Sequence record: MT446416.1 | From: Escherichia virus TH47 | Reading direction: 5' to 3' (one strand) | DNA length: 64,000 nt | Part shown: positions 3,445 to 64,000 of the stretch, piece after piece | Layout of the letters: each line of letters starts with the position of its first letter | Numbering within the stretch: the stretch's first letter is position 1 | Notes under the pieces: generated by a model | Seen by the model: the letters and a program-made list of their open reading frames with translations, nothing else | Told to the model about the DNA's origin: nothing | The model's database searches: none | Translations under genes and position numbers: made by a program

Positions 3445-3450
3445 TAAATA
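3445..3450 (+). promoter_or_regulatory. T4-late-like TAAATA motif 31 nt upstream of ATG 3482
   Basis: One of eight TAAATA sites found 31-36 nt upstream of gene starts in this window. Confidence 0.3.
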
Positions 3451-9088: not shown

Positions 9089-9094
9089 TATTTA
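9089..9094 (-). promoter_or_regulatory. T4-late-like TAAATA motif 31 nt upstream of ATG 9057
   Basis: Recurrent motif and spacing. Confidence 0.3.
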
Positions 9095-10344: not shown

Positions 10345-12450
10345 CCAACATTCAAGTTGGGTAAACGTGGTGCTTCTATTAATTTTGTAAACGATTCTGT
10401 CGCAATCAAAGACTTTTTAGGTGAAACGTTCCTACCTGTTAAGGTGGGAACTCCTAATGACGATGATTCCGCAGTAAACGTTATGTATCTTGAAGATAAC
10501 CCAAATGCTTTATTTGGCGTACTTCCACCAACAAATGACATTGGTAAAAATAACAACACTTATTTTCAAGTTGATTCTGAGGGTATTGTTGATATCTTTG
10601 CAAAAACAAATGATGTTTGGGTAAAATCATTATACATTAATAAAAATGTCCTTTCCAGTGTTAACGGTGCTGATTATATCGGACTTATTACTGGAGGAAC
10701 ACTCCAACAGGCACAGTTTTACATAACTCCAGAAGAGTTTGGTGCAAAAGGTGATGGCATCACTGATGACACGGCAGCGGTTAACGCATGTGCAGTTTAT
10801 GCAAAAGAACACCAAATCCAAATTCAAGCTGGTGGTAATTATCGTATCAGAACTGCTGTTTATTTGAATGATATTCAATGGTTTGGTGGAACAATCACTG
10901 GCAACGGTGGCACAATGGTATCAGTACTGAATAGTACAATCCAACAAGCAACATTAACAGGATGTTATTTAAAATTCTTTGGTGGTGATGGTAAATTTTA
11001 TTTTAATAAATTTATTAATATTACAAGTACTGCTACATTTCTAATGCAAGGTATGACTGAATCAGGTACTATCGACTTTTGCTTTAATGAAATGACACAA
11101 TGTAAGTACGGTGTTCTTCAGCAAGGCACTGGTGAGAAAATGACAGTTGGGCGTTATTCATACAACCACATCCATGATATATATGGTGATGCAATTGAAT
11201 TGAACGTAGTCAACTCACATTACCCAGACGGTTTTGTAATAGAAGGTAACTTGATTGAAAACGTAGATGGTACAGATGCACCAATTCCTCTTTCAAACTG
11301 GGGTATTGGTATCGGCGTTGCTGGTTCTGGTCCTTATGATGTGAATGCTGATGATTCACAATATGTAAAAAAATTCGTTATAAAAAATAACCGCTTGTAC
11401 AATGTCCGTCAATGTATTCACGTTGAGTTGGGTAAAGACTTTAAAATTCTCAATAATGAAGTTTATCCATCAACGTTGGTATCAATTGGTACTGGTTTGA
11501 CAACCGCTGGTGTAATTACTTATGGTTCTGTTGATTTTATTATTGATGGCCTATCTGGGCATCTATTAAATGATCCATCAGTAACTAACCGTATGGTTTC
11601 TATTAACTGGGGTGTAACATCTGGTAAATTTGCTGGTCCTCCACGTAACTTTAAATTATGTAATCTCCACATTCCTGAGTCGTCTATTATTGTGTATACT
11701 TCAGGCTCTGATAATTGGCTAAATACTACTGAACTTTCTAATATTACATGTAGTAGAATTCAATGGCGTGGATTGCCGTCATCTTCCAAGTTTAATAATA
11801 TCAGTACTAAAGAACTTGATGTTATTGGACAACACCTTGCAACTGAAGGTGAAGGAGGGGGCTTATATACTCGCTCTAAATATACATATACCAACTGGAC
11901 TAATTGTGTTGTTCAAGATGATTGTAACATATCAAAATATAGTTTCTCAAGAATGTATGTTGACCGTATTGACCAATCATCTAATAACTTTAAAGTAACC
12001 ACTGCAATTGATGGAACTGGACATCGTGGACCTGTAGTAATACCTGTAGTTGAACAGTATTACGTGCCTTATGATGTTTTTCCTGGTGGGAGATATTTCC
12101 CAGAAGGAACAATTATCCATAAACAATCAGGTGGAAAATTTATTGTTACAGTAGGTGGTTCTTTCTTTGGTCGATATGACACAATTAGACAAACAGTTGC
12201 AGGACAAACTTATATCGAAGCATTGGGTGTATCATGGGGTGATAATCAATATGCTAAAGCTGCTGGAACCGAAATCCTAATCACAGGAGCAGGGGAAAAC
12301 GGCGAAGATTTAAAAACATATATCACTAGAGCAGTTTATGTTGTTAATAATGCGTATCGTATCGATATTGCCGATCCGATTGTTACTGCTACCGCAGCAG
12401 GGGCATTATTGAAAGCTGCTCAACCAATAACATATATCACCCTATCTTAA
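10309..12450 (+). CDS. tailspike with pectate-lyase-like beta-helix (putative depolymerase)
   Basis: EFGAKGDGITDDTAAVNA motif typical of pectate-lyase-fold tailspikes; N-terminal 11 aa identical to next gene. Confidence 0.65.
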   Translation: MAVFSNLEGTMMPTFKLGKRGASINFVNDSVAIKDFLGETFLPVKVGTPNDDDSAVNVMYLEDNPNALFGVLPPTNDIGKNNNTYFQVDSEGIVDIFAKTNDVWVKSLYINKNVLSSVNGADYIGLITGGTLQQAQFYITPEEFGAKGDGITDDTAAVNACAVYAKEHQIQIQAGGNYRIRTAVYLNDIQWFGGTITGNGGTMVSVLNSTIQQATLTGCYLKFFGGDGKFYFNKFINITSTATFLMQGMTESGTIDFCFNEMTQCKYGVLQQGTGEKMTVGRYSYNHIHDIYGDAIELNVVNSHYPDGFVIEGNLIENVDGTDAPIPLSNWGIGIGVAGSGPYDVNADDSQYVKKFVIKNNRLYNVRQCIHVELGKDFKILNNEVYPSTLVSIGTGLTTAGVITYGSVDFIIDGLSGHLLNDPSVTNRMVSINWGVTSGKFAGPPRNFKLCNLHIPESSIIVYTSGSDNWLNTTELSNITCSRIQWRGLPSSSKFNNISTKELDVIGQHLATEGEGGGLYTRSKYTYTNWTNCVVQDDCNISKYSFSRMYVDRIDQSSNNFKVTTAIDGTGHRGPVVIPVVEQYYVPYDVFPGGRYFPEGTIIHKQSGGKFIVTVGGSFFGRYDTIRQTVAGQTYIEALGVSWGDNQYAKAAGTEILITGAGENGEDLKTYITRAVYVVNNAYRIDIADPIVTATAAGALLKAAQPITYITLS

Positions 12451-13364: not shown

Positions 13365-13373
13365 AAAAAATAG

Positions 13374-13406
13374 TCCAGACTACGATTCATCGAGTCTGGA
13401 TTTTTT
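13374..13406 (+). terminator. rho-independent terminator
   Basis: tccagact/agtctgga stem followed by T6. Confidence 0.65.
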
Positions 13407-13482
13407 ATATCAATAACTAAATATATGTATATTAACAAGGTCAAATGTATTTTATGCTTTTTGCCTATTTGGAGGGAACTAA

Positions 13483-16400
13483 ATGTACTCGATTAAAACA
13501 GATCTCGATATAACTGGTGGTGCAACGGTTGGTAAAGATCTTCTTGTGAAAGGCGATGCAGTATTCAATAAAAATCTAACAGTTAATGGAACCGTAACTT
13601 TTGCTGACGCTGTATTCACTGCGATTGAAGCAGGAACTGTAGACATTTCATCTACACTAGATGTTGCTGGTAAAGCATCATTGAATGGTGGGATTGAAGT
13701 TCATGGTAATTCCGTAATTGGTAATTTACCAGTTGGCTCTGATACTGCAACGATTAATTCTAATGCACAATTCCAAAGCCCAGTATCAATGGCAGGTAAC
13801 CTAACACAAACGGCTGGCACTGCTGTACTAAAAGATACCCAAGTGGCATCAATGGATGTTCTTGGAACTTCTTCATTTAAAGGTAATATTACTGCTGAAA
13901 CTGGCACTACCGCAGCATTTGACAAAATAACTGCAACTGATGCAACATTCACAAACACTGCAACTACTGATATCACATCAACTGGAACTGCAAACTTTAA
14001 AGATGTGAATATTTCCGGTACACTAGGTGGAACATTTAGTCTATCTGATGTTAATGCAACAACTCTAACTGTTTCTGGTTTAACCAGTCTACAAGGTGGT
14101 GTTACATTAGGTTCCAACATTACTGGTGTGAATAGTAGTGCAAACTTCCGTGATATTAAAATTGGTTCCAATGCTGCAAACACTAACTACCGTTTGAGCT
14201 TTAACTATTCTGCTCCAAGTCTTCGTCCAACTGTAATTCTACAGAACGAAATCCAATCAGAATTGATGTCTCCAGCTACCCTAAGTGTATTGAAAACTGC
14301 ATCTTTTGGTGATTCGTCATTATCCACTTTTGGTATTACTGGTAATGGTCTAAACAAACTAGATTACCTAACAGTATCTGGTAACTCTGTTCAAGATCCA
14401 ACAACTCCACTATTACAAGTAACTTCAGGTAAAACTAAAGTTCATGATTTCGAAGTAACAGGAACTGCAACTATTCCTAACATTGAAAGTACTGGAACTG
14501 CTAATTTTAATAACATCAACGTATCTGGTACACTCGGCGGTACTTTCAGTCTTGATGATATTGAAGCAAACACTCTAACTGTTTCTGGATTAACTAGCCT
14601 TGTTGGTGGTGTAACTTTGGGTGCTGATATTTCCGGTGCTAATAGTACTGCTAATTTTAAAGCAGTAAGTTTAGGACAAAACGCAGCCGATGCTAACGTT
14701 AAGTATGGTTTTGCTTATTCTGCCCCTGGTGCACGTCCAACTGTAATTCTACAAAATGAAATTCAGTCTGAACTAGTATCTCCAGCAGTACTAAATGTAC
14801 AAAAAACTGCTACCTTCGGTGATGCATCTCTTGCAACCTATGGTATCACAGGTAACGGTCTAAACAAACTAGATTATCTATCTATTACTGGTAATGGTAC
14901 ACAAAGTCCAGCAACGCCACAACTACAAGTAGCTGGTAAATCAGTACTAAATGATGTTGAATTCACTGGTACTGTAACTGGCCTAACAGTTGATGTAAGT
15001 GGTCAAGACCTAACTCCTAAATCTGTTGTTGCTGCTGAAGCAATCAAAGGACAAACCCTTGAATCTGTTGGTCAAACCACCGTAGGAACTAACCTACAAG
15101 TTGGTGGAACAGCTAATGTTGTTGGTGCACTAACTGGTACTGCTGCAACCTTTACTGGTGACGTAAGTGCTGCTAAAGGTACTTTCAGTGGTGATGTTAG
15201 CGTTACTGGGCAAACTGTAACTGTACGTGATTTAGTAGTAACTGGCACAACTACTGGTGTAACTGCCCAAGCTGACGTTGATGGTCTTGATATCGCCCCA
15301 AATAAAGTTGATGTTACAACAACACTATCTGTTGCTGGGGACACTACTTTAGCTGGTCTAACTGCTAGTTCAGTAACAAGTACTGGTGATGTTACTGGTG
15401 CGTCTGTATCTGGTAATACAGTAACTGCGGCTGGTGCACTATCTGGTGGTTCTCTTGCAGTAACTGGTGCTGGTTCTATGGCTTCACTAACTGTTCCAAG
15501 TATTACTGGGGACACTACTTTTGCTAATAACGTAACTATTACTGGAACACTAACTCCGAGTAGTATAGATTTAAGCACTACTGATGTAAGTGCTGCTTCT
15601 TTAACAACTACTGGTAACGTAACTGTTGGTGGTTCTCTTGCAGTAACTGGTGCTATTGATTTGTCTGCTGCTGATGTAGTAACAAAATCAGTTAGTGCAA
15701 CTAACCCAAGTACATTTGGTGTAATTAATGCATCTTCTGTTGCCGCAACTGGTGACGTTTCAGGTGGCACTCTAACTACTACTGGTGCAGCGAAAGTAGG
15801 AACACTAACTAGTACTGGTGTAGTATCTGGTTCGCGTTTGTCTTCTGGTACTGCAACAATCTCAACTTCTGTAACAGTTCCAACTTTACAAGCTGAAGCT
15901 GCTGGTGCTGGTACACTAAATCTAGCAAGTAATGTTGTCGCGGCAAAAGATCTAACTGTCACTGGTGTATTCAAACCTGAAGGTGGTCTTGACCTAACAA
16001 CTGTTGATATTACTGCAAACTCACTAACTACTACTGCTGATGTTAATGTTGGTGGAAACTTAGTAGTTGATGGTACTTTTGACCTAAGTGCTGCTGATGT
16101 ATCAGTTAAATCTCTTGTAAGTGCAGAGGCAATTACTAGTGGTGGTGTGATTACCGTTACCGATTCAACCAATACTAGTTCGTTCCCTAAAATTACTTCA
16201 ACTGATGCAACACTCTTTACAGTAAATGCAGGTACTATTAATGCAACTGGCAACAGTGTACTACAAAGTGTATCAGCTACTCAAGTAACTGCTACTAGTG
16301 CTGAATTTTCTGGTAGTGGCCTTGGTCTTCAAGTTGATAATGATGCAAACGTTGGTGGTGCATTATCTGTTGGTGGCATTGCAACTGTTGGTTCTTTAAC

Positions 16401-18441
16401 AACAACTGCTGCTTCTCTTAATATTGCAAAAAATACTGCAATCAATGGTGATTTAGCTGTATCTGGTACACTAACTGCTGGTTCAATCGACCTAAGCAAT
16501 ACTGATGTAACCGTTAAATCTCTTGATTCACTAGGTAACGCACACATTGCTGGTAACCTAACTGTTGATGGTGCATTCGACTTAAGTGCAACTAACCTTG
16601 TAGCTGCAAGTCTAGCAAGTACTGGTTCTACTACTGTTGGAACTGATCTAGTACTAACAACTGGTGTTGTGACTGGTAGCCCAGCTATCTCTGGTAATAC
16701 AACAATCGGTGGAACTCTTGGTGTAACTGGTGCTGTTAACCTAACTGATATTGTTAATATCGGTAAGAAAGTAACAGTGAGTACTGGTGGTATTCAGGTA
16801 GTTGATGGTGGTATCAATACTAACACAATTAACGTTTCTGGTGCTACTACTCTAGCAGGAACTTCCATTACTGGAACTTTAGGTGTAACTGGTGCTTCTA
16901 CTCTAGCAGGTGTATCTGCAACATCACTAACAGTTTCTGGTGACAGTACTGTTCAGAAACTAACTGTCCAAGGTGAATTGATCCCACAAGGTGGTCTTGA
17001 CCTAAGCGGTGCAGACATTACTGCTAATAGTCTAACTACTGCAACAACTATCAATGCAACTGGCCTAAGTACTCTAAGTGGTGGTGTTAGTACTTCTACT
17101 GTGACTGCATCTGGTCTAGCAACTGTTGGAAGTTTAACTTCTACTGCAAACGCATCAGTTGGTGGTAATTTGGGTGTAACTGGAACTCTAGGTGTTACTG
17201 GTGCAACTACTGTATCTTCACTAACAGCTACTGGTGCAGTGAAAACTGGTACAACCCTAACTGTTGGTACTCCAGTTGGTGAACAACCTGAAACTGTACA
17301 GATCATTCCAGATACTTATATTGCTGGTAAATTGCGTGTAATCGGCGGTATTAACGCTGATATTGATGTTAGTGGTCAAACACTAGAACCATATGCAATT
17401 GAAGCTGCTGCAACACTATCTGCTGTTGGTAACATTACTTCTGGTGCAACCATCGTTTCTAAAGCTGCAACAATTGGTGATGTTGGTTCACAAAACAACA
17501 ACCTAACTGTTAATGGTAACGTAGTAACTAATGGTGACTTCACAGTTACTGGGGTACTAAATGCACAATTGAACCAAGCAGATTCCGATGTAGCTGTTAA
17601 ATCTTTAACTGCAACTAATAACGTTGCGGCTGGTACTTCAATCACTGCTGGTACTTCCATCACTGCAACTGGATTACTTAAAGGTAATACTTTAGAAGTT
17701 ACTACTACTGGTTCATTTGGTGGTGCAGTAACTATGTCAAGTGGTGCAAACATCACTGGTACAGTGGGTATTACTGCTGGTGACCTAACAGTAGGTGGTA
17801 ATATCTCTGCAACTGGCACTGCTGGATTCGGTGCAACAACCGTTTCTACAATTACAACATCAGGTTTGGCTACACTTGCAAGTACATCCGTTACTGGTAA
17901 CGCAACAGTAGGTGGAACACTAGCAGTAACAGGAGCACTAACTGCGAATGGTAACGTAACATTAGGTGACGCAGCGGCTGACGTTCTAACCGTTAATGCA
18001 ACTTCATCATTTAAAGAAAATGCTGTGTTTGATAAGGCAGTAACAGTAACTGGTGAACTAACCACTACTAATGCTAACTTAACTACTACAACAGTAACTA
18101 CCAAAAAGTATGATGTAATCCCAACTCAAGTTACATCATCAGTAATTGCTCCAACCGGAACATGGACTCCAGATGGTACAAGTAACGTGTACTTCATCAC
18201 TCTAGACCAAGATACCACGTTGGCTCCAATTACTGGCCTAATTGGTGGCGGTAAAGCTGCATCAGTATACATCTATGTTAAACAAGATACAACTGGTAAC
18301 AGAAACTTTACAACTGATGGTACTTATGCTGTTGTTGATGGTGAACTAAACAAAACTGCTGGTAGCGTGACCATTTACCAAGTAATTTATGATGGTGTAA
18401 GTCCAGTTACTGATTTGTTCATTGCACAACGTACTGCTTAA
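13483..18441 (+). CDS. giant repetitive fibrous protein (1652 aa)
   Basis: T/G/V/S/A-rich periodic sequence; GGAGGG SD; tandem 170-aa duplication near N-terminus. Confidence 0.6.
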   Translation: MYSIKTDLDITGGATVGKDLLVKGDAVFNKNLTVNGTVTFADAVFTAIEAGTVDISSTLDVAGKASLNGGIEVHGNSVIGNLPVGSDTATINSNAQFQSPVSMAGNLTQTAGTAVLKDTQVASMDVLGTSSFKGNITAETGTTAAFDKITATDATFTNTATTDITSTGTANFKDVNISGTLGGTFSLSDVNATTLTVSGLTSLQGGVTLGSNITGVNSSANFRDIKIGSNAANTNYRLSFNYSAPSLRPTVILQNEIQSELMSPATLSVLKTASFGDSSLSTFGITGNGLNKLDYLTVSGNSVQDPTTPLLQVTSGKTKVHDFEVTGTATIPNIESTGTANFNNINVSGTLGGTFSLDDIEANTLTVSGLTSLVGGVTLGADISGANSTANFKAVSLGQNAADANVKYGFAYSAPGARPTVILQNEIQSELVSPAVLNVQKTATFGDASLATYGITGNGLNKLDYLSITGNGTQSPATPQLQVAGKSVLNDVEFTGTVTGLTVDVSGQDLTPKSVVAAEAIKGQTLESVGQTTVGTNLQVGGTANVVGALTGTAATFTGDVSAAKGTFSGDVSVTGQTVTVRDLVVTGTTTGVTAQADVDGLDIAPNKVDVTTTLSVAGDTTLAGLTASSVTSTGDVTGASVSGNTVTAAGALSGGSLAVTGAGSMASLTVPSITGDTTFANNVTITGTLTPSSIDLSTTDVSAASLTTTGNVTVGGSLAVTGAIDLSAADVVTKSVSATNPSTFGVINASSVAATGDVSGGTLTTTGAAKVGTLTSTGVVSGSRLSSGTATISTSVTVPTLQAEAAGAGTLNLASNVVAAKDLTVTGVFKPEGGLDLTTVDITANSLTTTADVNVGGNLVVDGTFDLSAADVSVKSLVSAEAITSGGVITVTDSTNTSSFPKITSTDATLFTVNAGTINATGNSVLQSVSATQVTATSAEFSGSGLGLQVDNDANVGGALSVGGIATVGSLTTTAASLNIAKNTAINGDLAVSGTLTAGSIDLSNTDVTVKSLDSLGNAHIAGNLTVDGAFDLSATNLVAASLASTGSTTVGTDLVLTTGVVTGSPAISGNTTIGGTLGVTGAVNLTDIVNIGKKVTVSTGGIQVVDGGINTNTINVSGATTLAGTSITGTLGVTGASTLAGVSATSLTVSGDSTVQKLTVQGELIPQGGLDLSGADITANSLTTATTINATGLSTLSGGVSTSTVTASGLATVGSLTSTANASVGGNLGVTGTLGVTGATTVSSLTATGAVKTGTTLTVGTPVGEQPETVQIIPDTYIAGKLRVIGGINADIDVSGQTLEPYAIEAAATLSAVGNITSGATIVSKAATIGDVGSQNNNLTVNGNVVTNGDFTVTGVLNAQLNQADSDVAVKSLTATNNVAAGTSITAGTSITATGLLKGNTLEVTTTGSFGGAVTMSSGANITGTVGITAGDLTVGGNISATGTAGFGATTVSTITTSGLATLASTSVTGNATVGGTLAVTGALTANGNVTLGDAAADVLTVNATSSFKENAVFDKAVTVTGELTTTNANLTTTTVTTKKYDVIPTQVTSSVIAPTGTWTPDGTSNVYFITLDQDTTLAPITGLIGGGKAASVYIYVKQDTTGNRNFTTDGTYAVVDGELNKTAGSVTIYQVIYDGVSPVTDLFIAQRTA
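13978..14997 (+). repeat. tandem duplication (2 x about 510 bp) inside the giant fibre gene
   Basis: Protein segments 166-335 and 336-500 align over their full length (STGTANF...TVILQNEIQSEL...GITGNGLNKLDYL). Confidence 0.7.
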
Positions 18442-18507
18442 TAATTATAATAAAAAAAACGGTGTCATCAATTATGGTGACACCATCTTAACAAGTGAGG
18501 TAGTTAT

Positions 18508-19287
18508 ATGTTTACATATGTAAAAGGTAGTTCTAAAGAAAATTATGAATTGGGTAACATCATCTCCAACCCAGTTGGTGTTAAGGGTTTAAAAGAACGC
18601 CCTGGGGCAACTCCAGATGATGAACAAACATATCGTTATTTGTACAGTGATATTCGTGCACTTTATGGTATTTCAAGTAAAGATGGTTCTGAAATTGAAC
18701 CTAATAACGCTGTTCGCAAAGAAGAGGGTTTCTGGTGGTTGGAATATAAGAATGTTGGTAATGTGAACGCAATTAATGAGAATTTGGAATATATTAAACT
18801 ACAAGATAGTAATCAACCAGTCATCACATTCTTAGAAGAAGCAGAAGGTGAATATAAAGAGTTAACAGTACTGAAAACTTATAATTATGTTGATATGGAC
18901 ATTGCAGCAGTTAAATCTGATCTGAAAGCACGCACAGTATCATCTCGTAGTGATCGTATTAATGCTGGTTATATGTTTAACGGTCATCGTTATAGTACTG
19001 ATCTAGCTGGTCGTCAAATGCTTCTTAATTATTATACACAAGTAACTTCCGGTTCTGATAGCGTTTCGATTTTCCTTGATGACGCAATTGTAAAACTATC
19101 TGCTGCTGAAATGACTCAACTATACACTGAAGCATTTGCTATGGTTGAATCCCTATTTGCAGAGTGTAATAAGCAATGTGCTGACATTGATGCAGTTCCT
19201 GATGCTGATGAAGATGCAATTTATAAAGCACAACAGGCGGCTGTATGGGTATATGAAGGTATTGATATTCCTGAGCGTACTCGTTAA
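18508..19287 (+). CDS. hypothetical protein (possible fibre assembly or accessory)
   Basis: 259-aa ORF with GTGAGG SD; function is a positional guess. Confidence 0.4.
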   Translation: MFTYVKGSSKENYELGNIISNPVGVKGLKERPGATPDDEQTYRYLYSDIRALYGISSKDGSEIEPNNAVRKEEGFWWLEYKNVGNVNAINENLEYIKLQDSNQPVITFLEEAEGEYKELTVLKTYNYVDMDIAAVKSDLKARTVSSRSDRINAGYMFNGHRYSTDLAGRQMLLNYYTQVTSGSDSVSIFLDDAIVKLSAAEMTQLYTEAFAMVESLFAECNKQCADIDAVPDADEDAIYKAQQAAVWVYEGIDIPERTR

Positions 19288-19302
19288 TTTATATTTTTTT
19301 TA

Positions 19303-19335
19303 AAGGTCAACTATGGTTGGCCTTTTCTTTTATCT
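19303..19335 (+). terminator. rho-independent terminator
   Basis: 8-bp stem aggtcaac/gttggcct (one G-U pair) followed by ttttctttt. Confidence 0.6.
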
Positions 19336-19339
19336 AAAA

Positions 19340-19345
19340 TAAATA
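19340..19345 (+). promoter_or_regulatory. T4-late-like TAAATA motif 34 nt upstream of ATG 19380
   Basis: Recurrent motif and spacing. Confidence 0.3.
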
Positions 19346-19379
19346 CTTAATATATAATCTATTCTGAGGAAATATTTAA

Positions 19380-21344
19380 ATGAGTATAAATCGAATTAGA
19401 GGTGATGGTGGTGTAATTATAGATAGTCAGGCATTTCTAGAATTACCTAAAGCACCGACTAAAGAAACCGCTGATGTGGTTAGATCAGGGATGATTAGAT
19501 ACAATAAAGGATGGAAAGCATTTGAAGGTGTACTAGACTTTGAAGATGGTTCAATGGCATATCGACGTTTTGCAAACCTAGATGCGAACGGTAAACTTCT
19601 TACTTCCCAATTACCAGATTCAGTAACTAGTGGTTTACAATTTGTTGGTACATATAATCCCATCCCAGATGATATCGATCCACCTTTAGCACAAACTCCA
19701 CTACCAGCACCATCACCATCGCTTAATGGTGATTATTATGTCGTTCGTGGTATAATGGATGCCGCACAAGCACATTATGAAGCAAATAATCCACAAACAA
19801 GTCCTGTTACATTTACACCTACAAATCCAACTGGACAAGGTAATTGGATTGAAATTTTATATTATGTTGACTCTAATCCAAATATATCTGGTGCTAAACT
19901 AGTAACATACGCTTTTGCTAGAATTATTACTGCATCTATTCCCAGTACTGGACATGATGGCCTTGAAAATTTAGCAACAGATACTGACTTGACCAAACCA
20001 TTTGCATCTGGTGTTCCAATGAACCAAACTGCACTTTCAGATGGCGATTGGATTATTATAACTGAAGATAAGAATATACGTCTTCGTCAGTCAAGAACAA
20101 GCATTTCCGCTGCTTCAGTATTATATGACAATACTGTAATGATTGCAAATCATCGTCAATTTAGAACAAACGCAGGGACCGTTCAAACATCCATAGATAA
20201 CGTTGTGATTGAGTGTTTACGTAGAACTGGCGATTCCATGTATAATGATGGAACAGACGGCTCTGGGCGTTTTGGGGTGGTGTATGGCAGTGCAGCAGCA
20301 CCAGCATTGACATTTAATAATAATCCGTTTGACCCAACGAATAACCCAGGTAATGACCCAACTAAGTGGTCCGATGCTAATACTGGTATATTTCATCCAT
20401 CCGATGACGCAATTGGGTTCAGCACTGCTGGCACAGAACGTGTTCGAATTAATAATGGAACACTAACATTATTCCAAACTACCGCTACACCAGCAGCTAC
20501 GCCAGTAATACGTTTTGATAATGCATCAAACACAAACGTAGGGATAAGTGCAAGTAGTAATATTATTTCTTTAAGTTCAATGAATAAAGTTCAAGTTGAA
20601 TTTAAAAATGGTGAATCACATTTTCATGGAAATATTATTGTAGATGGTTCAACATCACTAACTGGTGATTTAGACGCAGGTAACATCAATGCCAGCGGGA
20701 ATTTAGTTGTTAAAGGTAATACAACACTAGGTGACACTACTGGTGACACTATTACAGTTAATGGTGTTAGTACTTATAATGCAAATACTAATTTCAATGG
20801 AACTAATAACAAATTCAAAAACATAAACTTACTAGAGAATGGTGTATTCACATTAGAAAGTACTACAAACCAAAGTGATATAAAACTACTTGGTGCAGAC
20901 TTACGTTTCACTATGGGAAGTTATGCTGATGTAAGTATATATGATAACGGTGTTATTCGTACTCGTTTCAACCGATATGGTATTCAATTACCAGTACTGG
21001 CTACAATTGATAACTCGGTTGGTGTTGATGGTATGATTGCATACTCAAATACCGAACGTACATCGATGCAGAAGGTTCAAGGACAATGGGTTCCAATTGG
21101 TTCTGGTTCTGTTCGTACTGACCCGTTTGTTGCGTCAGCGTGGGTTTTAAACGGCTCATATTACACATTAACAGTAACTGCTAGTAACATAGTAACTGCT
21201 GAAATTCAAGAACTCGTAAGTACTGGTGTTTACACTCGTGTTGAAGTTGATAGTGTTACATTCAATGGAACAAGCGTAGTGTTCAGTATCCCTGCAACTC
21301 CTGATGTGAGATTTGCCGGACGTACACTGGTTACATTAAGATAA
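19380..21344 (+). CDS. tail-fibre-like protein
   Basis: 654-aa ORF; N-terminal GMIRYNKGWKAFEGV segment and Gly/Asn/Thr-rich body resemble fibre proteins. Confidence 0.5.
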   Translation: MSINRIRGDGGVIIDSQAFLELPKAPTKETADVVRSGMIRYNKGWKAFEGVLDFEDGSMAYRRFANLDANGKLLTSQLPDSVTSGLQFVGTYNPIPDDIDPPLAQTPLPAPSPSLNGDYYVVRGIMDAAQAHYEANNPQTSPVTFTPTNPTGQGNWIEILYYVDSNPNISGAKLVTYAFARIITASIPSTGHDGLENLATDTDLTKPFASGVPMNQTALSDGDWIIITEDKNIRLRQSRTSISAASVLYDNTVMIANHRQFRTNAGTVQTSIDNVVIECLRRTGDSMYNDGTDGSGRFGVVYGSAAAPALTFNNNPFDPTNNPGNDPTKWSDANTGIFHPSDDAIGFSTAGTERVRINNGTLTLFQTTATPAATPVIRFDNASNTNVGISASSNIISLSSMNKVQVEFKNGESHFHGNIIVDGSTSLTGDLDAGNINASGNLVVKGNTTLGDTTGDTITVNGVSTYNANTNFNGTNNKFKNINLLENGVFTLESTTNQSDIKLLGADLRFTMGSYADVSIYDNGVIRTRFNRYGIQLPVLATIDNSVGVDGMIAYSNTERTSMQKVQGQWVPIGSGSVRTDPFVASAWVLNGSYYTLTVTASNIVTAEIQELVSTGVYTRVEVDSVTFNGTSVVFSIPATPDVRFAGRTLVTLR

Positions 21345-21350
21345 TAAAAA

Positions 21351-21380
21351 AGGGAGACATAAGTCTCCCTTTTCTTTTAT
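21351..21380. terminator. bidirectional rho-independent terminator
   Basis: agggagac/gtctccct stem, A-run upstream, T-run downstream; between convergent genes. Confidence 0.7.
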
Positions 21381-22306
21381 ACAGCCATTGGTGCTTTGAT
21401 TGTTGGCATTGGATCGTAATTAACTAATTTGAAAGAATCCATAGTGAAATCTTCAATATCAGTAATAGTAGGATCTAACCATAATTCTGGTAATGTACGT
21501 GGTTCACGTTGGAGTTGCTCTTTTACTTGTTCAATATGGTTTTGATAGATATGGCAGTCGCCACCATTCCAAATAAATTCACCAACATCTAACCCAGTAA
21601 TTTGTGCAATCATATGAGTTAGTAGTGAGTAACTACTAATGTTAAATGGTACACCAAGGAATAAATCAGCACTGCGTTGATGAAGAATACAACTTAGTTT
21701 ACCCTGTACAACACAAAACTGCACAAAGCTATGACAGGGTGGCAAAGTCATAGCATCAAGCTCACCAACGTTCCATGCACTTAGAATGTGACGACGACCG
21801 TATGGATCAGTATTGATACCTTCAATAACTTGTTTTAGCTGGTCAGTTACACGACGCATAATAACACCATGTGAACCAGTATAATCAATAACTTTATACC
21901 CTTTATCTTTTAGTTCTTGAATTTCTTCAGTACTGGAACTGAATTTATAATCTTCCCATTCACGCCATTGTTTACCATAAACTGGGCCAAGCTCACCATC
22001 AGAATACCCAAGGCTTACACCTTGATTAAGGTAGTTGTCTGTCCAAATTGTTTTCTTTTCTACATCACGTGTCCCGTGTAAAATTTCACACAGACGACGC
22101 TCATCGTGAGAACCTTCAATAAACCATAACAATTCTGAAGTCATTGCTTTCCAAGCCAAACGTTTAGTAGTTACTGCTGGGAAACCTTCTTTTAGGTCAA
22201 AACGCATTTGTTGTCCGATTAGCTTGATAGTGCCAACACCAGTACGATCAACGCTTTCGACACCTTGATCCAGAATTCTTTGATATAGTTCTTGTAGTTG
22301 TTTCAT
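21377..22306 (-). CDS. thyA: thymidylate synthase
   Basis: DRTGVGT, LPPCHSFVQF (catalytic Cys), GKLSCILHQRSADLFLGVPFNI, C-terminal IKAPMAV; about 33-aa in-frame insertion relative to E. coli ThyA. Confidence 0.92.
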   Translation of the reverse strand: MKQLQELYQRILDQGVESVDRTGVGTIKLIGQQMRFDLKEGFPAVTTKRLAWKAMTSELLWFIEGSHDERRLCEILHGTRDVEKKTIWTDNYLNQGVSLGYSDGELGPVYGKQWREWEDYKFSSSTEEIQELKDKGYKVIDYTGSHGVIMRRVTDQLKQVIEGINTDPYGRRHILSAWNVGELDAMTLPPCHSFVQFCVVQGKLSCILHQRSADLFLGVPFNISSYSLLTHMIAQITGLDVGEFIWNGGDCHIYQNHIEQVKEQLQREPRTLPELWLDPTITDIEDFTMDSFKLVNYDPMPTIKAPMAV

Positions 22307-25310: not shown

Positions 25311-25342
25311 TTGTATTTCCTCGTTTAGTTAAGATAAAAGAA

Positions 25343-25360
25343 GGATACCATGTGGTATCC
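25343..25360 (-). promoter_or_regulatory. intercistronic hairpin (possible attenuator) between ATPase and VWA genes
   Basis: Palindrome ggatacca/tggtatcc followed on the minus strand by tcttttat. Confidence 0.35.
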
Positions 25361-25385
25361 TCCTTGTCAACACTCTTTTTAATTA

Positions 25386-26714: not shown

Positions 26715-26754
26715 GTATATTTTCCTTTTGTTGGATAAAATCGTTTAGGTTTCT

Positions 26755-26783
26755 ATTATAGCCAATCCGTGGGCAAAAGTAAA
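26755..26783 (-). promoter_or_regulatory. proximal promoter P3 (TTTACT-N17-TATAAT)
   Basis: Minus-strand TTTACTtttgcccacggattggcTATAAT about 40 nt upstream of the ATPase ATG. Confidence 0.4.
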
Positions 26784-26823
26784 GGAACTGTGTTAAAAGA
26801 ATTTTTAACTTATCAGTTCCTTT
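26781..26823 (-). promoter_or_regulatory. hairpin (possible attenuator/terminator) between P2 and P3
   Basis: Perfect 10-bp inverted repeat aaaggaactg/cagttccttt with 23-nt loop, followed on minus strand by acttttg. Confidence 0.4.
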
Positions 26824-26885
26824 GTTACTTCATGAATCATCCGTGTATTTAAAAAGGCATTTCTCTTTGCCGTCTTGATGTGGTC

Positions 26886-26913
26886 ATTATATCACATCGT
26901 TCAGGCTTGTCAA
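26886..26913 (-). promoter_or_regulatory. promoter P2 (TTGACA-N16-TGaTATAAT) with A-rich UP element
   Basis: Minus-strand aaaaaaaagttgTTGACAagcctgaacgatgtgaTATAAT; part of a ~70-bp direct repeat. Confidence 0.65.
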
Positions 26914-26979
26914 CAACTTTTTTTTATTTCTTTTTCAATCTCACATCTTGTGATTTTGAAAACTTGCTTCGTGGTGGTC

Positions 26980-27007
26980 ATTATATCACATCATTCGGCG
27001 TTGTCAA
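26980..27007 (-). promoter_or_regulatory. promoter P1 (TTGACA-N16-TGaTATAAT) with A-rich UP element
   Basis: Minus-strand aaaaaaaaagatgTTGACAacgccgaatgatgtgaTATAAT; second copy of the repeat. Confidence 0.65.
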
Positions 27008-27034
27008 CATCTTTTTTTTTCTTTATTTTCGAAG

Positions 27035-39256: not shown

Positions 39257-41251
39257 TTAATATTTTTTTGTGTATTTTATATTACCAGAGTTGTAAATCT
39301 TATAATATCCCAATACATCACAGCAAATTTGTCTCTCAGTTAAGTTAATATCATGACCTTTCTTGACCAATTTATGTTTTTGACATTTCTGACGTGAAAT
39401 CCTCTCATGTGTTTGTGGGTCATAATAAAAATATCCGGGTTCTGTATAGCTATCAAACTCAAAGCCAAGAACTGTATAAAGATCACCACTACTCCAATCC
39501 ATATCCGCATATGTCAATAATGATTGTGGATTATATACTGTTTCAAAATATTTTAGTAATTTTGATGCACCACCAACAACTGTACCGGATGAACAGTATC
39601 TGATTAATTCATATTCATAGTTTTTATCAAACCTTGATTTACCAAAGGTCATAACTGCAACTAAATCACTTCCATAGTAAAGTCCAATGTGAATACTTGC
39701 TTGTGCAACACCTTGAATATGGTGTGATTTAGTAAACATATTACTTACTTGTTTGTCTATATTTCTAACAGTACATTTTCTAGCATAAATTCTATTTGAC
39801 ACTAGAAGTTTATTCTTTAAACGTTCCTTGATAATTTTATTTGTTAATGGGTTATCCCATTCATCTTCATAAATGTGAATAAGATTCACCCCATGTTTTA
39901 AACAATCCAATACCTTATCTTGATGTTTAGTGGAATTTACATTTTCATCATTATGCCAATACACACCATTAAATTCAATAGCTAGATTACGGTCTGGGAT
40001 ATACACATCCAACTCTTTAGGTTTCAGCACTGAACGGTCGTTTTCTATAATTTGCATATTTTGTATTAATGATTTTATATAATCAACTAAATCTTTCTCT
40101 TTCAATGAATGACCATTATTTTTCTGACACTTACATTTCACTTTATGATTTTTATACTTACTATAAAACAATTCATCACAATACTCACACCAAAATGGGT
40201 ATTCGTCTGTATTAACTTTCATCATTAGGTCGGTGTTTTCAAATAATGGAATATAGTTTTTATCAATATTTGCAACAATGATATTATATCTTTCGTCTAG
40301 ACGAGCAAGTGACATTTTCTCTTTATACTCATCAGTCTGTGAGTAGTGTTCTGAACCATATCTATTTTTTGTGGTTTCTTTCATTTTTTCAATGATAGAA
40401 TTATTTTGGGCTGGGTGTTTTACACCATATCGCTCCACATTGGTATTATGAACTTTTTCCTGAACACTCATATTGCTCATTGGGTAAAATGAATTATACT
40501 TCAACGTGTTGGTGTTTTTTATTTTATCTTGGACAATTTTATTTGATAGTGGATTGCCACCATATCGTTCAAGATTTGTTTTATTGATTTTTTCACGAAT
40601 CGTCGGTGATGATAAAGAATACTCAGCACCGTATCTTAATATATTTGTGTTTTTGGCTTTCTCTTTTACTTCATTTCTTTTGCTTTGGAATTCAACACCA
40701 TACTTTTTTAAATTTGTTGCTTTTACTTTATTGAATATTTCAGAGTTTTGGTTTGGATATTCACAACCATATCGCTCTATATTAGTTTGTTTGATTTTAT
40801 CTTTAGTTTCTGATGTTTGTAAATTAGATGAGACACCATAACGCTCAATGTTAGTTTTTTCTTTCTTTTGTTTTACTTCTTGTATTTGGGACACATTAGA
40901 TACACCATACATATCCATTAATGTTGATTTTGTTTTATTAGTTCGATTTTTATAATACATTTCATGGCATACATTACATGTATTTTTCTTATTAATCACA
41001 TAGTCATCACAAAATTTATAAAATCCTTTTTGGAAATTTTTGTATCTTGCTTTTTTTCCGCAATATGCAGTTGGAACGGTTGTTATATCATTCATGAACA
41101 TATATAGAATTTTATATATTTCGAAATCAGTTTTTGGTTCTATTCCAAAAGTAGAAAGGAGAACCCTCACACGAGAGTCCCCTTTGTATAAATGTACCCA
41201 TGAATTAATATGTTTTGACAACAAAAGTTTTTTTAATTCTTCATTGTTCAT
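39257..41251 (-). CDS. homing-endonuclease-like protein with ten ~23-aa RYG repeats and a Vsr-like nuclease domain
   Basis: Cys-rich N-terminus; ten ~23-aa R/K-Y-G/N repeats; C-terminal LAIEFNGVYWH motif typical of PD-(D/E)xK homing-endonuclease-like domains. Confidence 0.6.
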   Translation of the reverse strand: MNNEELKKLLLSKHINSWVHLYKGDSRVRVLLSTFGIEPKTDFEIYKILYMFMNDITTVPTAYCGKKARYKNFQKGFYKFCDDYVINKKNTCNVCHEMYYKNRTNKTKSTLMDMYGVSNVSQIQEVKQKKEKTNIERYGVSSNLQTSETKDKIKQTNIERYGCEYPNQNSEIFNKVKATNLKKYGVEFQSKRNEVKEKAKNTNILRYGAEYSLSSPTIREKINKTNLERYGGNPLSNKIVQDKIKNTNTLKYNSFYPMSNMSVQEKVHNTNVERYGVKHPAQNNSIIEKMKETTKNRYGSEHYSQTDEYKEKMSLARLDERYNIIVANIDKNYIPLFENTDLMMKVNTDEYPFWCEYCDELFYSKYKNHKVKCKCQKNNGHSLKEKDLVDYIKSLIQNMQIIENDRSVLKPKELDVYIPDRNLAIEFNGVYWHNDENVNSTKHQDKVLDCLKHGVNLIHIYEDEWDNPLTNKIIKERLKNKLLVSNRIYARKCTVRNIDKQVSNMFTKSHHIQGVAQASIHIGLYYGSDLVAVMTFGKSRFDKNYEYELIRYCSSGTVVGGASKLLKYFETVYNPQSLLTYADMDWSSGDLYTVLGFEFDSYTEPGYFYYDPQTHERISRQKCQKHKLVKKGHDINLTERQICCDVLGYYKIYNSGNIKYTKKY
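40277..40939 (-). repeat. in-frame ~69-bp tandem repeats encoding the RYG modules
   Basis: RYG/KYG/RYN recur every 22-24 residues (protein positions ~115-323). Confidence 0.6.
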
Positions 41252-48013: not shown

Positions 48014-48189
48014 ATCTCATAACGGTTTGTGTTTGGATTGTAGCAATAGGTATCATTAATTTTAACACCAGGTTTAAGTGTGATGGTTGTACCTACTTCA
48101 GTACTGGGTTCCGCATCACAGTAAATCATCACACCAACTCCTGCGAGTAAGGCTATGATACATACAATTACACATATGGTATATTCCAT
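48004..48189 (-). CDS. small single-TM membrane protein (holin-like candidate)
   Basis: Hydrophobic segment ICVIVCIIALLAGVGVMIY; GAGGAA SD. Confidence 0.35.
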   Translation of the reverse strand: MEYTICVIVCIIALLAGVGVMIYCDAEPSTEVGTTITLKPGVKINDTYCYNPNTNRYEICL

Positions 48190-56953: not shown

Positions 56954-57091
56954 TCACTTCGTTCTCTCGTAACTCAAGAAGTCACTACGTTTACTTCGTA
57001 AACTAGTTCCTTCTGAAAATGATAATGTACTTTAAAAGCTTGACGGGATTTGTTGAGGACTATTTCATCCCCCCGCAGGGGAATGAAGGTA

Positions 57092-57116
57092 ATAAAAAAG
57101 AGACAATTAAGTCTCT
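57092..57116 (-). terminator. rho-independent terminator ending the candidate ncRNA
   Basis: Perfect 6-bp stem agagac/gtctct, 6-nt loop, T6-7 on the minus strand only. Confidence 0.55.
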
Positions 57117-57608
57117 CTTGACGATGATGGCATCGGATATTATCGAATTGCGAATTTCTCAAATTTTGGACGGATCTTTCTTGTACCAAAATTTAGAGAG
57201 CGAAAGCGGGTTGCTCGGTTTCTCTCTATCGCAGTCATATGCAACGGTCGCTGGTCTTTTCATCAACAGCACTCAGTACTAAACTCTATTCGATCAAAGT
57301 AGTACCTGTTCTCAAATTTTGGACGCAACTTTCTTGTAAAATCGCGTCCACAATCCTTGAACTCCCTTAGCAAATTCGTAAGGTGCGAACCTTATACATC
57401 TATCTAGGAACTCTCTGTGTGCTTATTGGAGTTCTTTATACAGCCGTGTCGCCGTGATTCGTGGTCTTATCTCGTGTTTGTTTGATTGCCAGTACTCTAA
57501 CAGGTTTCTTTTGCTGTTCGCTACAACGGTAAAGCTCATCTATCCTTTACATTTTCAAGAGAAGTAGGTTCTCATTATCCATTTTTCAATGTCCGTTGTC
57601 ATTTTACA
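57092..57608 (-). ncRNA. candidate structured non-coding RNA (~515 nt), promoter-to-terminator unit without ORF
   Basis: Own promoter at 57615-57642 and own terminator at 57092-57116; all frames interrupted by stops; 17-nt direct repeat at 57156-57172 and 57309-57325; several GC-rich hairpins. Confidence 0.4.
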
Positions 57609-57614
57609 ATATAC

Positions 57615-57642
57615 ATTATATCACTAGGATGTATTATGTCCC
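57615..57642 (-). promoter_or_regulatory. promoter GGGACA-N16-TGaTATAAT driving the non-coding unit
   Basis: Minus-strand GGGACAtaatacatcctagtgaTATAAT just after the stop of the 57644-58057 gene. Confidence 0.55.
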
Positions 57643-57643
57643 G

Positions 57644-63937: not shown

Positions 63938-64000
63938 TCCTCATTAATATAAATCAGTAATGTCTTTGTATGCATTAAACTGTAACAGTTTAATGCATAC

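Follow-up and report, generated by a model that had tools for sequence, protein, structure and literature searches.

A hairpin between two co-oriented genes of an Asteriusvirus-type jumbo coliphage as a possible sense-strand intercistronic mRNA stem-loop

We analyzed a stretch of 64,000 nucleotides from Escherichia virus TH47 (MT446416.1, hereafter the window), in which a strong hairpin at positions 18461–18484 separates two genes that are read in the same direction. Our preferred reading, to which we assign a probability of about 45%, is that this hairpin acts on the sense (plus) strand as an intercistronic mRNA stem-loop and that it derives from the usual A-tract/hairpin/T-tract terminator of the phage, minus the T-tract. 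This reading is built on a comparison of sequences and on a map of predicted promoters and terminators. The window belongs to an Asteriusvirus-type jumbo coliphage and is 98% identical to WPEC5, EC.P1, and fEgEco12 and ~80% identical to 121Q, PBECO4, and G17.

The hairpin and its gap

The hairpin is located in a 66-nt gap (18442–18507) between the genes at 13483–18441 and 18508–19287. Both are encoded on the plus strand, in agreement with the initial annotation. According to the annotation of relatives, the first gene codes for the long tail fibre proximal subunit (1652 aa); the second codes for a virion structural protein of 259 aa (phrog_17968), which also weakly resembles tail-fibre PHROGs. 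The fibre gene ends in tandem stops (TAATAA) 19 nt before the hairpin, and the stop context TAATAATTA is common to this gap and to the one at 25311–25385. A Shine-Dalgarno sequence (GAGG, 18497–18500, plus strand) lies 7 nt before the ATG at 18508, within a block, ATCNTAACAARTGAGGTAGTTAT, that is nearly invariant in the clade. On the opposite strand, the nearest gene upstream in the minus direction is thyA (21377–22306), which is 2.9 kb off and has its own strong bidirectional terminator (21346–21375).

The stretch 18461–18484 reads GGTGTCATCAATTATGGTGACACC and is composed of a 5′ arm, GGTGTCATC (18461–18469), an AATTAT loop (18470–18475), and a 3′ arm, GGTGACACC (18476–18484). The 7-bp arms ggtgtca/tgacacc that had first drawn attention to the site were correct, and the hairpin is real. 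In the plus-strand RNA, the stem has 9 bp (GGUGUCAUC/GGUGACACC), one of which is a U·G pair, and ViennaRNA places an extra A-U pair on top, the stem reaching 9–10 pairs because T18468 pairs with G18477 as U·G. The minus-strand RNA reads GGUGUCACC-AUAAUU-GAUGACACC, followed by a G and U8, and forms 7 bp, an internal A·C mismatch, and inner pairs. The A8 tract that precedes the hairpin on the plus strand (18452–18459), separated from the stem by C18460, is the T8 that follows it on the minus strand. The plus-strand tail (18485–18492), ATCTTAAC, contains three T in eight positions and no U-tract. The A-run before the hairpin and the missing plus-strand T-run after it, both pointed out initially, were thus borne out.

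The hairpin is far better than expected by chance. A 41-nt plus-strand segment folded at −15.5 kcal/mol vs −4.05 ± 1.9 kcal/mol in shuffled sequences (z = −6.0), with none of the 200 shuffles as good. The hairpin alone reached −14.0 kcal/mol on the plus strand and −10.8 kcal/mol on the minus strand, the latter increasing to −16.4 kcal/mol when the flank pairs were included. The pattern GGTGTCAY-N3-12-RTGACACC had a single occurrence in the window and none in 100 shuffles.

The site therefore shares with a sense intrinsic terminator a stable GC-rich stem-loop (9–10 bp, −14.0 kcal/mol, z = −6), and the U-tract expected immediately 3′ of the stem is lacking, with three T in eight positions in ATCTTAAC and two in eight in the other haplotypes. 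A symmetric bidirectional terminator would have an A-tract on the 5′ side and a T-tract on the 3′ side, of which only the A8 was found. On the minus strand, both the stem-loop and the U-tract of an antisense intrinsic terminator are there, the tract having six T in eight positions in relatives. Our consensus terminator scan reported the site on neither strand, because the plus strand is without a U-tract and the minus-strand stem contains the A·C mismatch.

Other identities for the stem were tried and rejected. It is not a repeated element, as GGTGTCA was not enriched (3 found vs 8.3 expected) and the window contains the inverted repeat only once. A search with the covariance models of Rfam 15 gave no match at gathering score in the whole window, and around the hairpin only chance-level matches (E > 2) were returned, such as MicF (18 bits vs a gathering score of 79, E = 4.2). 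Nor is ATCTTAAC a common post-hairpin motif, as its 8-mers occur at chance frequency and the 121Q clade has ATCATAAC instead. A related string, ATCTTAA(C), was seen at 12444 (plus), 18485 (plus), and 25328 (minus), 10–25 nt upstream of three start codons and twice directly after a hairpin; overall, it is no more frequent than chance would give, and the 121Q clade does not conserve it.

A probable late operon around the hairpin

In the related phage CBB, a gp55-like late sigma factor and an ATAAATA late-promoter motif have been reported (PMC5259590). In the window, the core TAAATA occurs 2.6-fold less often than expected (39 vs ~100), and the longer ATAAATA is likewise underrepresented (10 vs 31 expected). 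Gaps between genes, a small part of the sequence, hold about half of the TAAATA matches, mostly sense-oriented and upstream of genes, and in the adjacent 50 kb of fEgEco12, the core stands ahead of almost every late gene (baseplate, portal, capsid). From this distribution, TAAATA works as a practical marker for what would be T4-like late promoters of this phage group. Examples in the window are located at 3445, 13418, and 19340 on the plus strand and at 9089, 34382, 35159, 38225, 42104, and 59780 on the minus strand.

Ahead of the fibre gene, a canonical symmetric terminator (A8, hairpin, T6; 13373–13406, plus strand), an example of the standard module of the phage, closes the preceding unit. 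It is followed by a late-promoter-like TAAATA core (13418–13423, plus strand), which would be the start of a late operon of two genes. The next plus-strand TAAATA, at 19340–19345, is the core of a conserved box, AAAATAAATAC, and the putative late promoter of the next gene (19380–21344). Between 13419 and 19339, the plus strand contains no TAAATA, the hairpin gap (18442–18507) included, and the 259-aa gene lacks a promoter motif of its own. We considered a late promoter within the gap and rejected it, since the candidate TATAATAA lacks the TAAATA core present at all convincing late promoters. The predicted end of the operon is a canonical sense terminator at 19302–19333 (plus strand), AAAGGTCAAC-TATG-GTTGGCCTTT followed by TCTTTTAT, which is conserved out to A4 and Kaldavass with compensatory changes in the stem. 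The gap that contains it (19288–19379) is a complete stop-and-restart signal, with the terminator followed by the AAAATAAATAC box, and this arrangement is also kept to A4 and Kaldavass.

Because TAAATA is found at 13418 and 19340 and not in the hairpin gap, the fibre gene and the 259-aa gene look like one late operon, and probably are. The gap does not resemble the end of a unit, where a sense terminator would be followed by a gene with its own promoter. On the present map (promoter at 13418, terminator at 19302, nothing between), the hairpin would be inside a polycistronic sense transcript, and if the two genes are in one operon, it must therefore let sense transcription through. No published transcriptome of any Asteriusvirus was found in the literature.

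A separate start for the 259-aa gene was nevertheless examined. A sigma-70-like promoter, TGCACA-17-TATAAT (18423–18451), matches the consensus at 10 of 12 positions with a perfect TATAAT, and it would start at about 18458–18460, 1–3 nt before the stem, giving the 259-aa gene an mRNA with a protective 5′ stem-loop. A late promoter closely followed by a hairpin does occur elsewhere, in locus L022 of fEgEco12 (35980–36052 and 48102–48168). However, such promoter-like matches are no commoner in the window than in shuffles (57 vs 57.8), the −35 element is part of conserved coding sequence, and the −10 element is TAAAAT in BF17 and Turkey3. Moreover, a late structural gene would be expected to use TAAATA, which is absent from the gap, and we consider this start very improbable.

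Sigma-70 promoters of a different quality were observed on the minus strand in a 320-nt gap (26715–27034). Two nearly identical strong promoters match at 12 of 12 positions each (TTGACA, a 16-nt spacer with TG, TATAAT) and are each preceded by an A-rich, UP-like stretch, with a third, weaker promoter in the same gap. This is probably an early-promoter cluster.

Variation of the hairpin among relatives

For the comparison of the hairpin, 18 relatives reduce to four haplotypes. The 7-bp core GGTGTCA/TGACACC is unchanged in all 18, while the coding DNA of the flanking genes is merely 75–80% identical. The loops differ in all four haplotypes and vary in length, which speaks against a DNA-binding site of fixed spacing, and a protein operator was rejected on this ground. 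The A-tract ranges from A6 to A9 among the 95–99% identical phages of the window clade and is ATAATAATAAA or ATAATAAAA in other clades. The plus-strand tail is ATCATAAC or ATCGTAAC in these other clades and is never T-rich (two to three T in eight positions). The polarity of the site is thus asymmetric in all four haplotypes, with at least six T in eight positions in the minus-strand tail and at most three in the plus-strand tail. Outside the window clade, that is, in three of the four haplotypes, the minus-strand U-tract is TTTATTAT or TTTTATTA, and 5–11% of the sense-strand intergenic 8-mers of this phage have this composition. The 121Q version of the hairpin has the tail TTTATTATT.

Three pairs of the stem vary, each on one side only, and each change turns a C-G pair into a U·G pair on the plus strand and into an A·C mismatch on the minus strand. 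As a result, 97.9% of the cells compared are paired on the plus strand vs 89.6% on the minus strand, and pairing on the sense strand is kept across relatives, as would be expected of an mRNA stabilizer or processing element. The plus-strand hairpin is also the more stable one in all four haplotypes, by 0.6–3.9 kcal/mol; among the window hairpins of known direction, the sense version is more stable or within 0.5 kcal/mol. The stem changes hence favor the plus strand, in a way that is suggestive only, as the count of plus-compatible vs minus-compatible changes rests on three transitions, a ~1-in-8 event under no preference. No compensatory, two-sided changes were found in the 18 relatives; therefore, conservation of the structure is inseparable from conservation of the stem sequence itself.

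This lack of covariation, together with a standard module that is complete but for one of its three parts, would also fit a functionless relic of a decayed bidirectional terminator. A relic is hard to reconcile with a stem core that stays invariant while the loop and the A-tract change freely and the coding DNA has diverged to 75–80% identity, and we hold this origin to be quite improbable.

Turkey5 and A4 share this gene order, and their gap is occupied by an unrelated hairpin followed by a T-run, an ordinary sense terminator. It is followed by TAAATA in A4 and only by a near-match to the promoter core, TAAAATAA, in Turkey5. A sense-strand RNA hairpin would therefore be the common feature of the site, the full stop accompanying a restart signal. 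Kaldavass also has a terminator and a TAAATA before the homologue, in a gap between two paralogues and hence not strictly orthologous. In XaC1 and Hallingskeid, the gaps measure 14–17 nt and have no hairpin. A small inversion of a former sense terminator was rejected as the origin of the present polarity, as all four haplotypes have loops that align in one orientation, with no sign of a flip. Scanning IMG/VR, GTDB genomes, and JGI metagenomes for further haplotypes returned 121Q itself only.

The full sense terminators of Turkey5 and A4 raise the question of whether the hairpin is a leaky terminator or attenuator, at which a pause or partial release would leave the downstream gene less transcribed than the fibre gene. 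Its stability is indeed that of the bona fide terminators of the phage (−11.8 to −18.2 kcal/mol). Yet the tail, AUCUUAAC, AUCAUAAC, or AUCGUAAC, offers two to three U in eight positions with one U in the first three, and sites of E. coli intrinsic termination with such poor U-tracts release very little polymerase. Attenuation at this site is improbable in our view.

Roles on the two strands and likeness to known elements

The initial annotation described the site as a canonical terminator for the minus strand only, which may end antisense transcripts. The anatomical part of this proposal stood, since the stem plus U-run is present on the minus strand alone in all four haplotypes; as for its use in ending antisense transcripts, the comparative evidence leans away from it. 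A dedicated antisense-only intrinsic terminator would work as follows: the polymerase on the minus strand would fold GGUGUCACC...GAUGACACC, reach the G and U8, and release, so that 'anti-late' transcripts are stopped before the 5-kb fibre gene, and the missing plus-strand T-run would leave the sense operon uninterrupted. Since the sense T-tract is missing, such a terminator has one working direction only, antisense to both neighboring genes. T4 makes anti-late RNA early in infection, which we counted in favor of this proposal; our literature search on 'anti-late RNA' found no paper. The RNA to be stopped could come from read-through of the thyA terminator (21346–21375) or from a minus-strand TAAATA at 19373–19378, which overlaps the ATG of the 654-aa gene. 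Between the thyA terminator and the hairpin, nothing else resembles a promoter for antisense transcription except weak sigma-70-like matches; were this TAAATA active, antisense transcripts from it would cross the 259-aa gene in the direction of the hairpin.

Several observations agree with termination on the minus strand. Its anatomy is canonical there (−10.8 kcal/mol alone, −16.4 kcal/mol with flank pairs, then U8), the asymmetry of the two tails holds in every haplotype, and the terminator scan found no other strong minus-strand terminator between 21346 and 18461. The UE-S1 record, too, has an antisense-strand terminator at this site, as annotated by its depositors. The tract grew to A6–A9 in the window clade, and long runs of this kind are rare: A8 occurs twice in 64 kb, both times just upstream of a hairpin, and A or T runs of at least 7 mostly abut terminator hairpins in the window. 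The minus-strand architecture in the window clade is therefore not just base composition. Finally, symmetric terminators are common between co-oriented genes, and the capacity to stop antisense transcription is thus widespread in the phage.

Against this proposal, no minus-strand gene is present within 2.9 kb, and thyA stands behind its own terminator. No minus-strand promoter is conserved: the TAAATA at 19373 is kept in close relatives only, neither Turkey5 nor A4 retaining it, and the candidate sigma-70 boxes fall within coding sequence, where they drift along with synonymous sites. Changes in the stem weaken the minus-strand hairpin and not the plus-strand one, the tail in three of the four haplotypes is merely TTTATTAT or TTTTATTA, a composition reached at 5–11% of positions, and the same gap in Turkey5 and A4 contains a terminator for the sense strand. 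A dedicated antisense-only terminator is a coherent but less likely alternative to the preferred reading. Somewhat more doubtful is the extended proposal of a one-way insulator in the late operon, which would be transparent to sense transcription, would stop antisense polymerase before the 5-kb repetitive fibre gene, and would have had its A-run lengthened by selection. A short cis-antisense sRNA ending at the hairpin was rejected, as the first 150 nt of the downstream gene contain no conserved minus-strand promoter and the MicF-like match is at chance level.

To see how common the design is, all local hairpins of −8 kcal/mol or better were listed in the window, and the structural module of fEgEco12 was surveyed gap by gap; the fEgEco12 locus overlaps the window by ~5.85 kb, and both surveys together cover ~108 kb. 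Symmetric A-tract/hairpin/T-tract terminators were common throughout, co-oriented neighbors included. Hairpins on the sense strand that lack a T-run were present too, for example downstream of a late promoter in fEgEco12 L022 (35980–36052), and we count them in favor of the preferred reading. Of all hairpins separating co-oriented genes, the one at 18461 alone had an A-run before it and lacked a T-run behind it, and for an antisense terminator this speaks against a general design.

Other elements were noticed away from the gap. Several late-gene terminators with C(UUCG)G-type tetraloops (CTTCGG), known from the intercistronic hairpins of phage T4, were seen at 14772–14851, 18314–18415, and 40318–40427 of fEgEco12 L022. 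The window edge cuts a perfect 33-nt palindrome, GTATGCATTAAACTGTAACAGTTTAATGCATAC (63968–64000, −18.3 kcal/mol). Among minus-strand genes, an ORF-poor stretch of ~600 nt (56954–57643) contains a repeat (57018–57457 and 57496–57624) and has a second copy ~90 kb away in this genome type, at 30115–30666 of fEgEco12 L022 (73% identical over a 456-nt alignment, E = 1e-71). Both copies share an exact 20-mer, CATCCCCCCGCAGGGGAATG, which forms a C/G-rich hairpin and in the window comes after a canonical terminator. The stretch matched no Rfam family, and the pair could be non-coding RNA genes or degenerate small genes.

Under the preferred reading of a sense-strand intercistronic stem-loop, host RNA polymerase redirected by the gp55-like sigma factor of the phage would start near 13418 and transcribe, in this order, the fibre gene, the hairpin, and the gene for the 259-aa virion protein up to the terminator at 19302. 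Because the T-tract is missing, the polymerase would form the hairpin without being released and read into the downstream gene, which has no promoter. Once in the mRNA, the stable stem would most likely be a barrier to decay or processing. After cleavage in the flanking A/U-rich single strands, it could shield the 3′ end of the fibre segment or the 5′ end of the downstream segment, and it may also insulate the nearby ribosome-binding site structurally. Both the joint transcription of the two genes and the role in stabilization or processing are what we infer from the sequence. One finding does not fit easily: the A8 next to the hairpin, which is rare and marks terminators elsewhere in the window, is not needed by a sense stabilizer. 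The two roles are not mutually exclusive, and any antisense RNA reaching the minus-strand face of the hairpin would be terminated too, which we regard as a by-product or, at most, a secondary function.

Stem-loops that act as barriers between the cistrons of an mRNA are known from the REP hairpins of malE-malF, the hairpins of the puf operon, and the stable intercistronic hairpins of phage T4. The present element is similar in being a stable GC-rich sense stem-loop without a U-tract between the cistrons of one predicted transcript, here just after a stop codon and before the next ribosome-binding site. Unlike a REP-type repeat, it is a single short stem of 9–10 bp with a sequence unique in the window, and unlike all three of these elements, which need no A-run, it adjoins one. 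It resembles the symmetric terminators of the phage itself (1054, 6798, 13373, 21346, 35483, 39229, 43546, and 55370) in its A-tract and GC-rich hairpin and differs from them in the missing sense-side T-tract. On the minus strand, the comparison is with the canonical Rho-independent terminators that end cis-antisense RNAs, such as lambda OOP and P22 sar. The hairpin and U8 are likewise antisense to coding genes and near the translation start of the downstream gene; in contrast to OOP and sar, no convincing promoter defines an antisense RNA here, and Rfam matches are at chance level.

If the site proved to be an antisense-only terminator, it would be a tidy case of orientation-selective insulation in an operon, useful for phage engineering or synthetic circuits, with no new principle involved. 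As it stands, the hairpin is an ordinary feature that matters little beyond annotation, where terminator-prediction tools assign the site to the 'wrong' strand, the UE-S1 record being an example. For these jumbo coliphages, it would mean that the fibre gene and the 259-aa gene probably form one late transcription unit.
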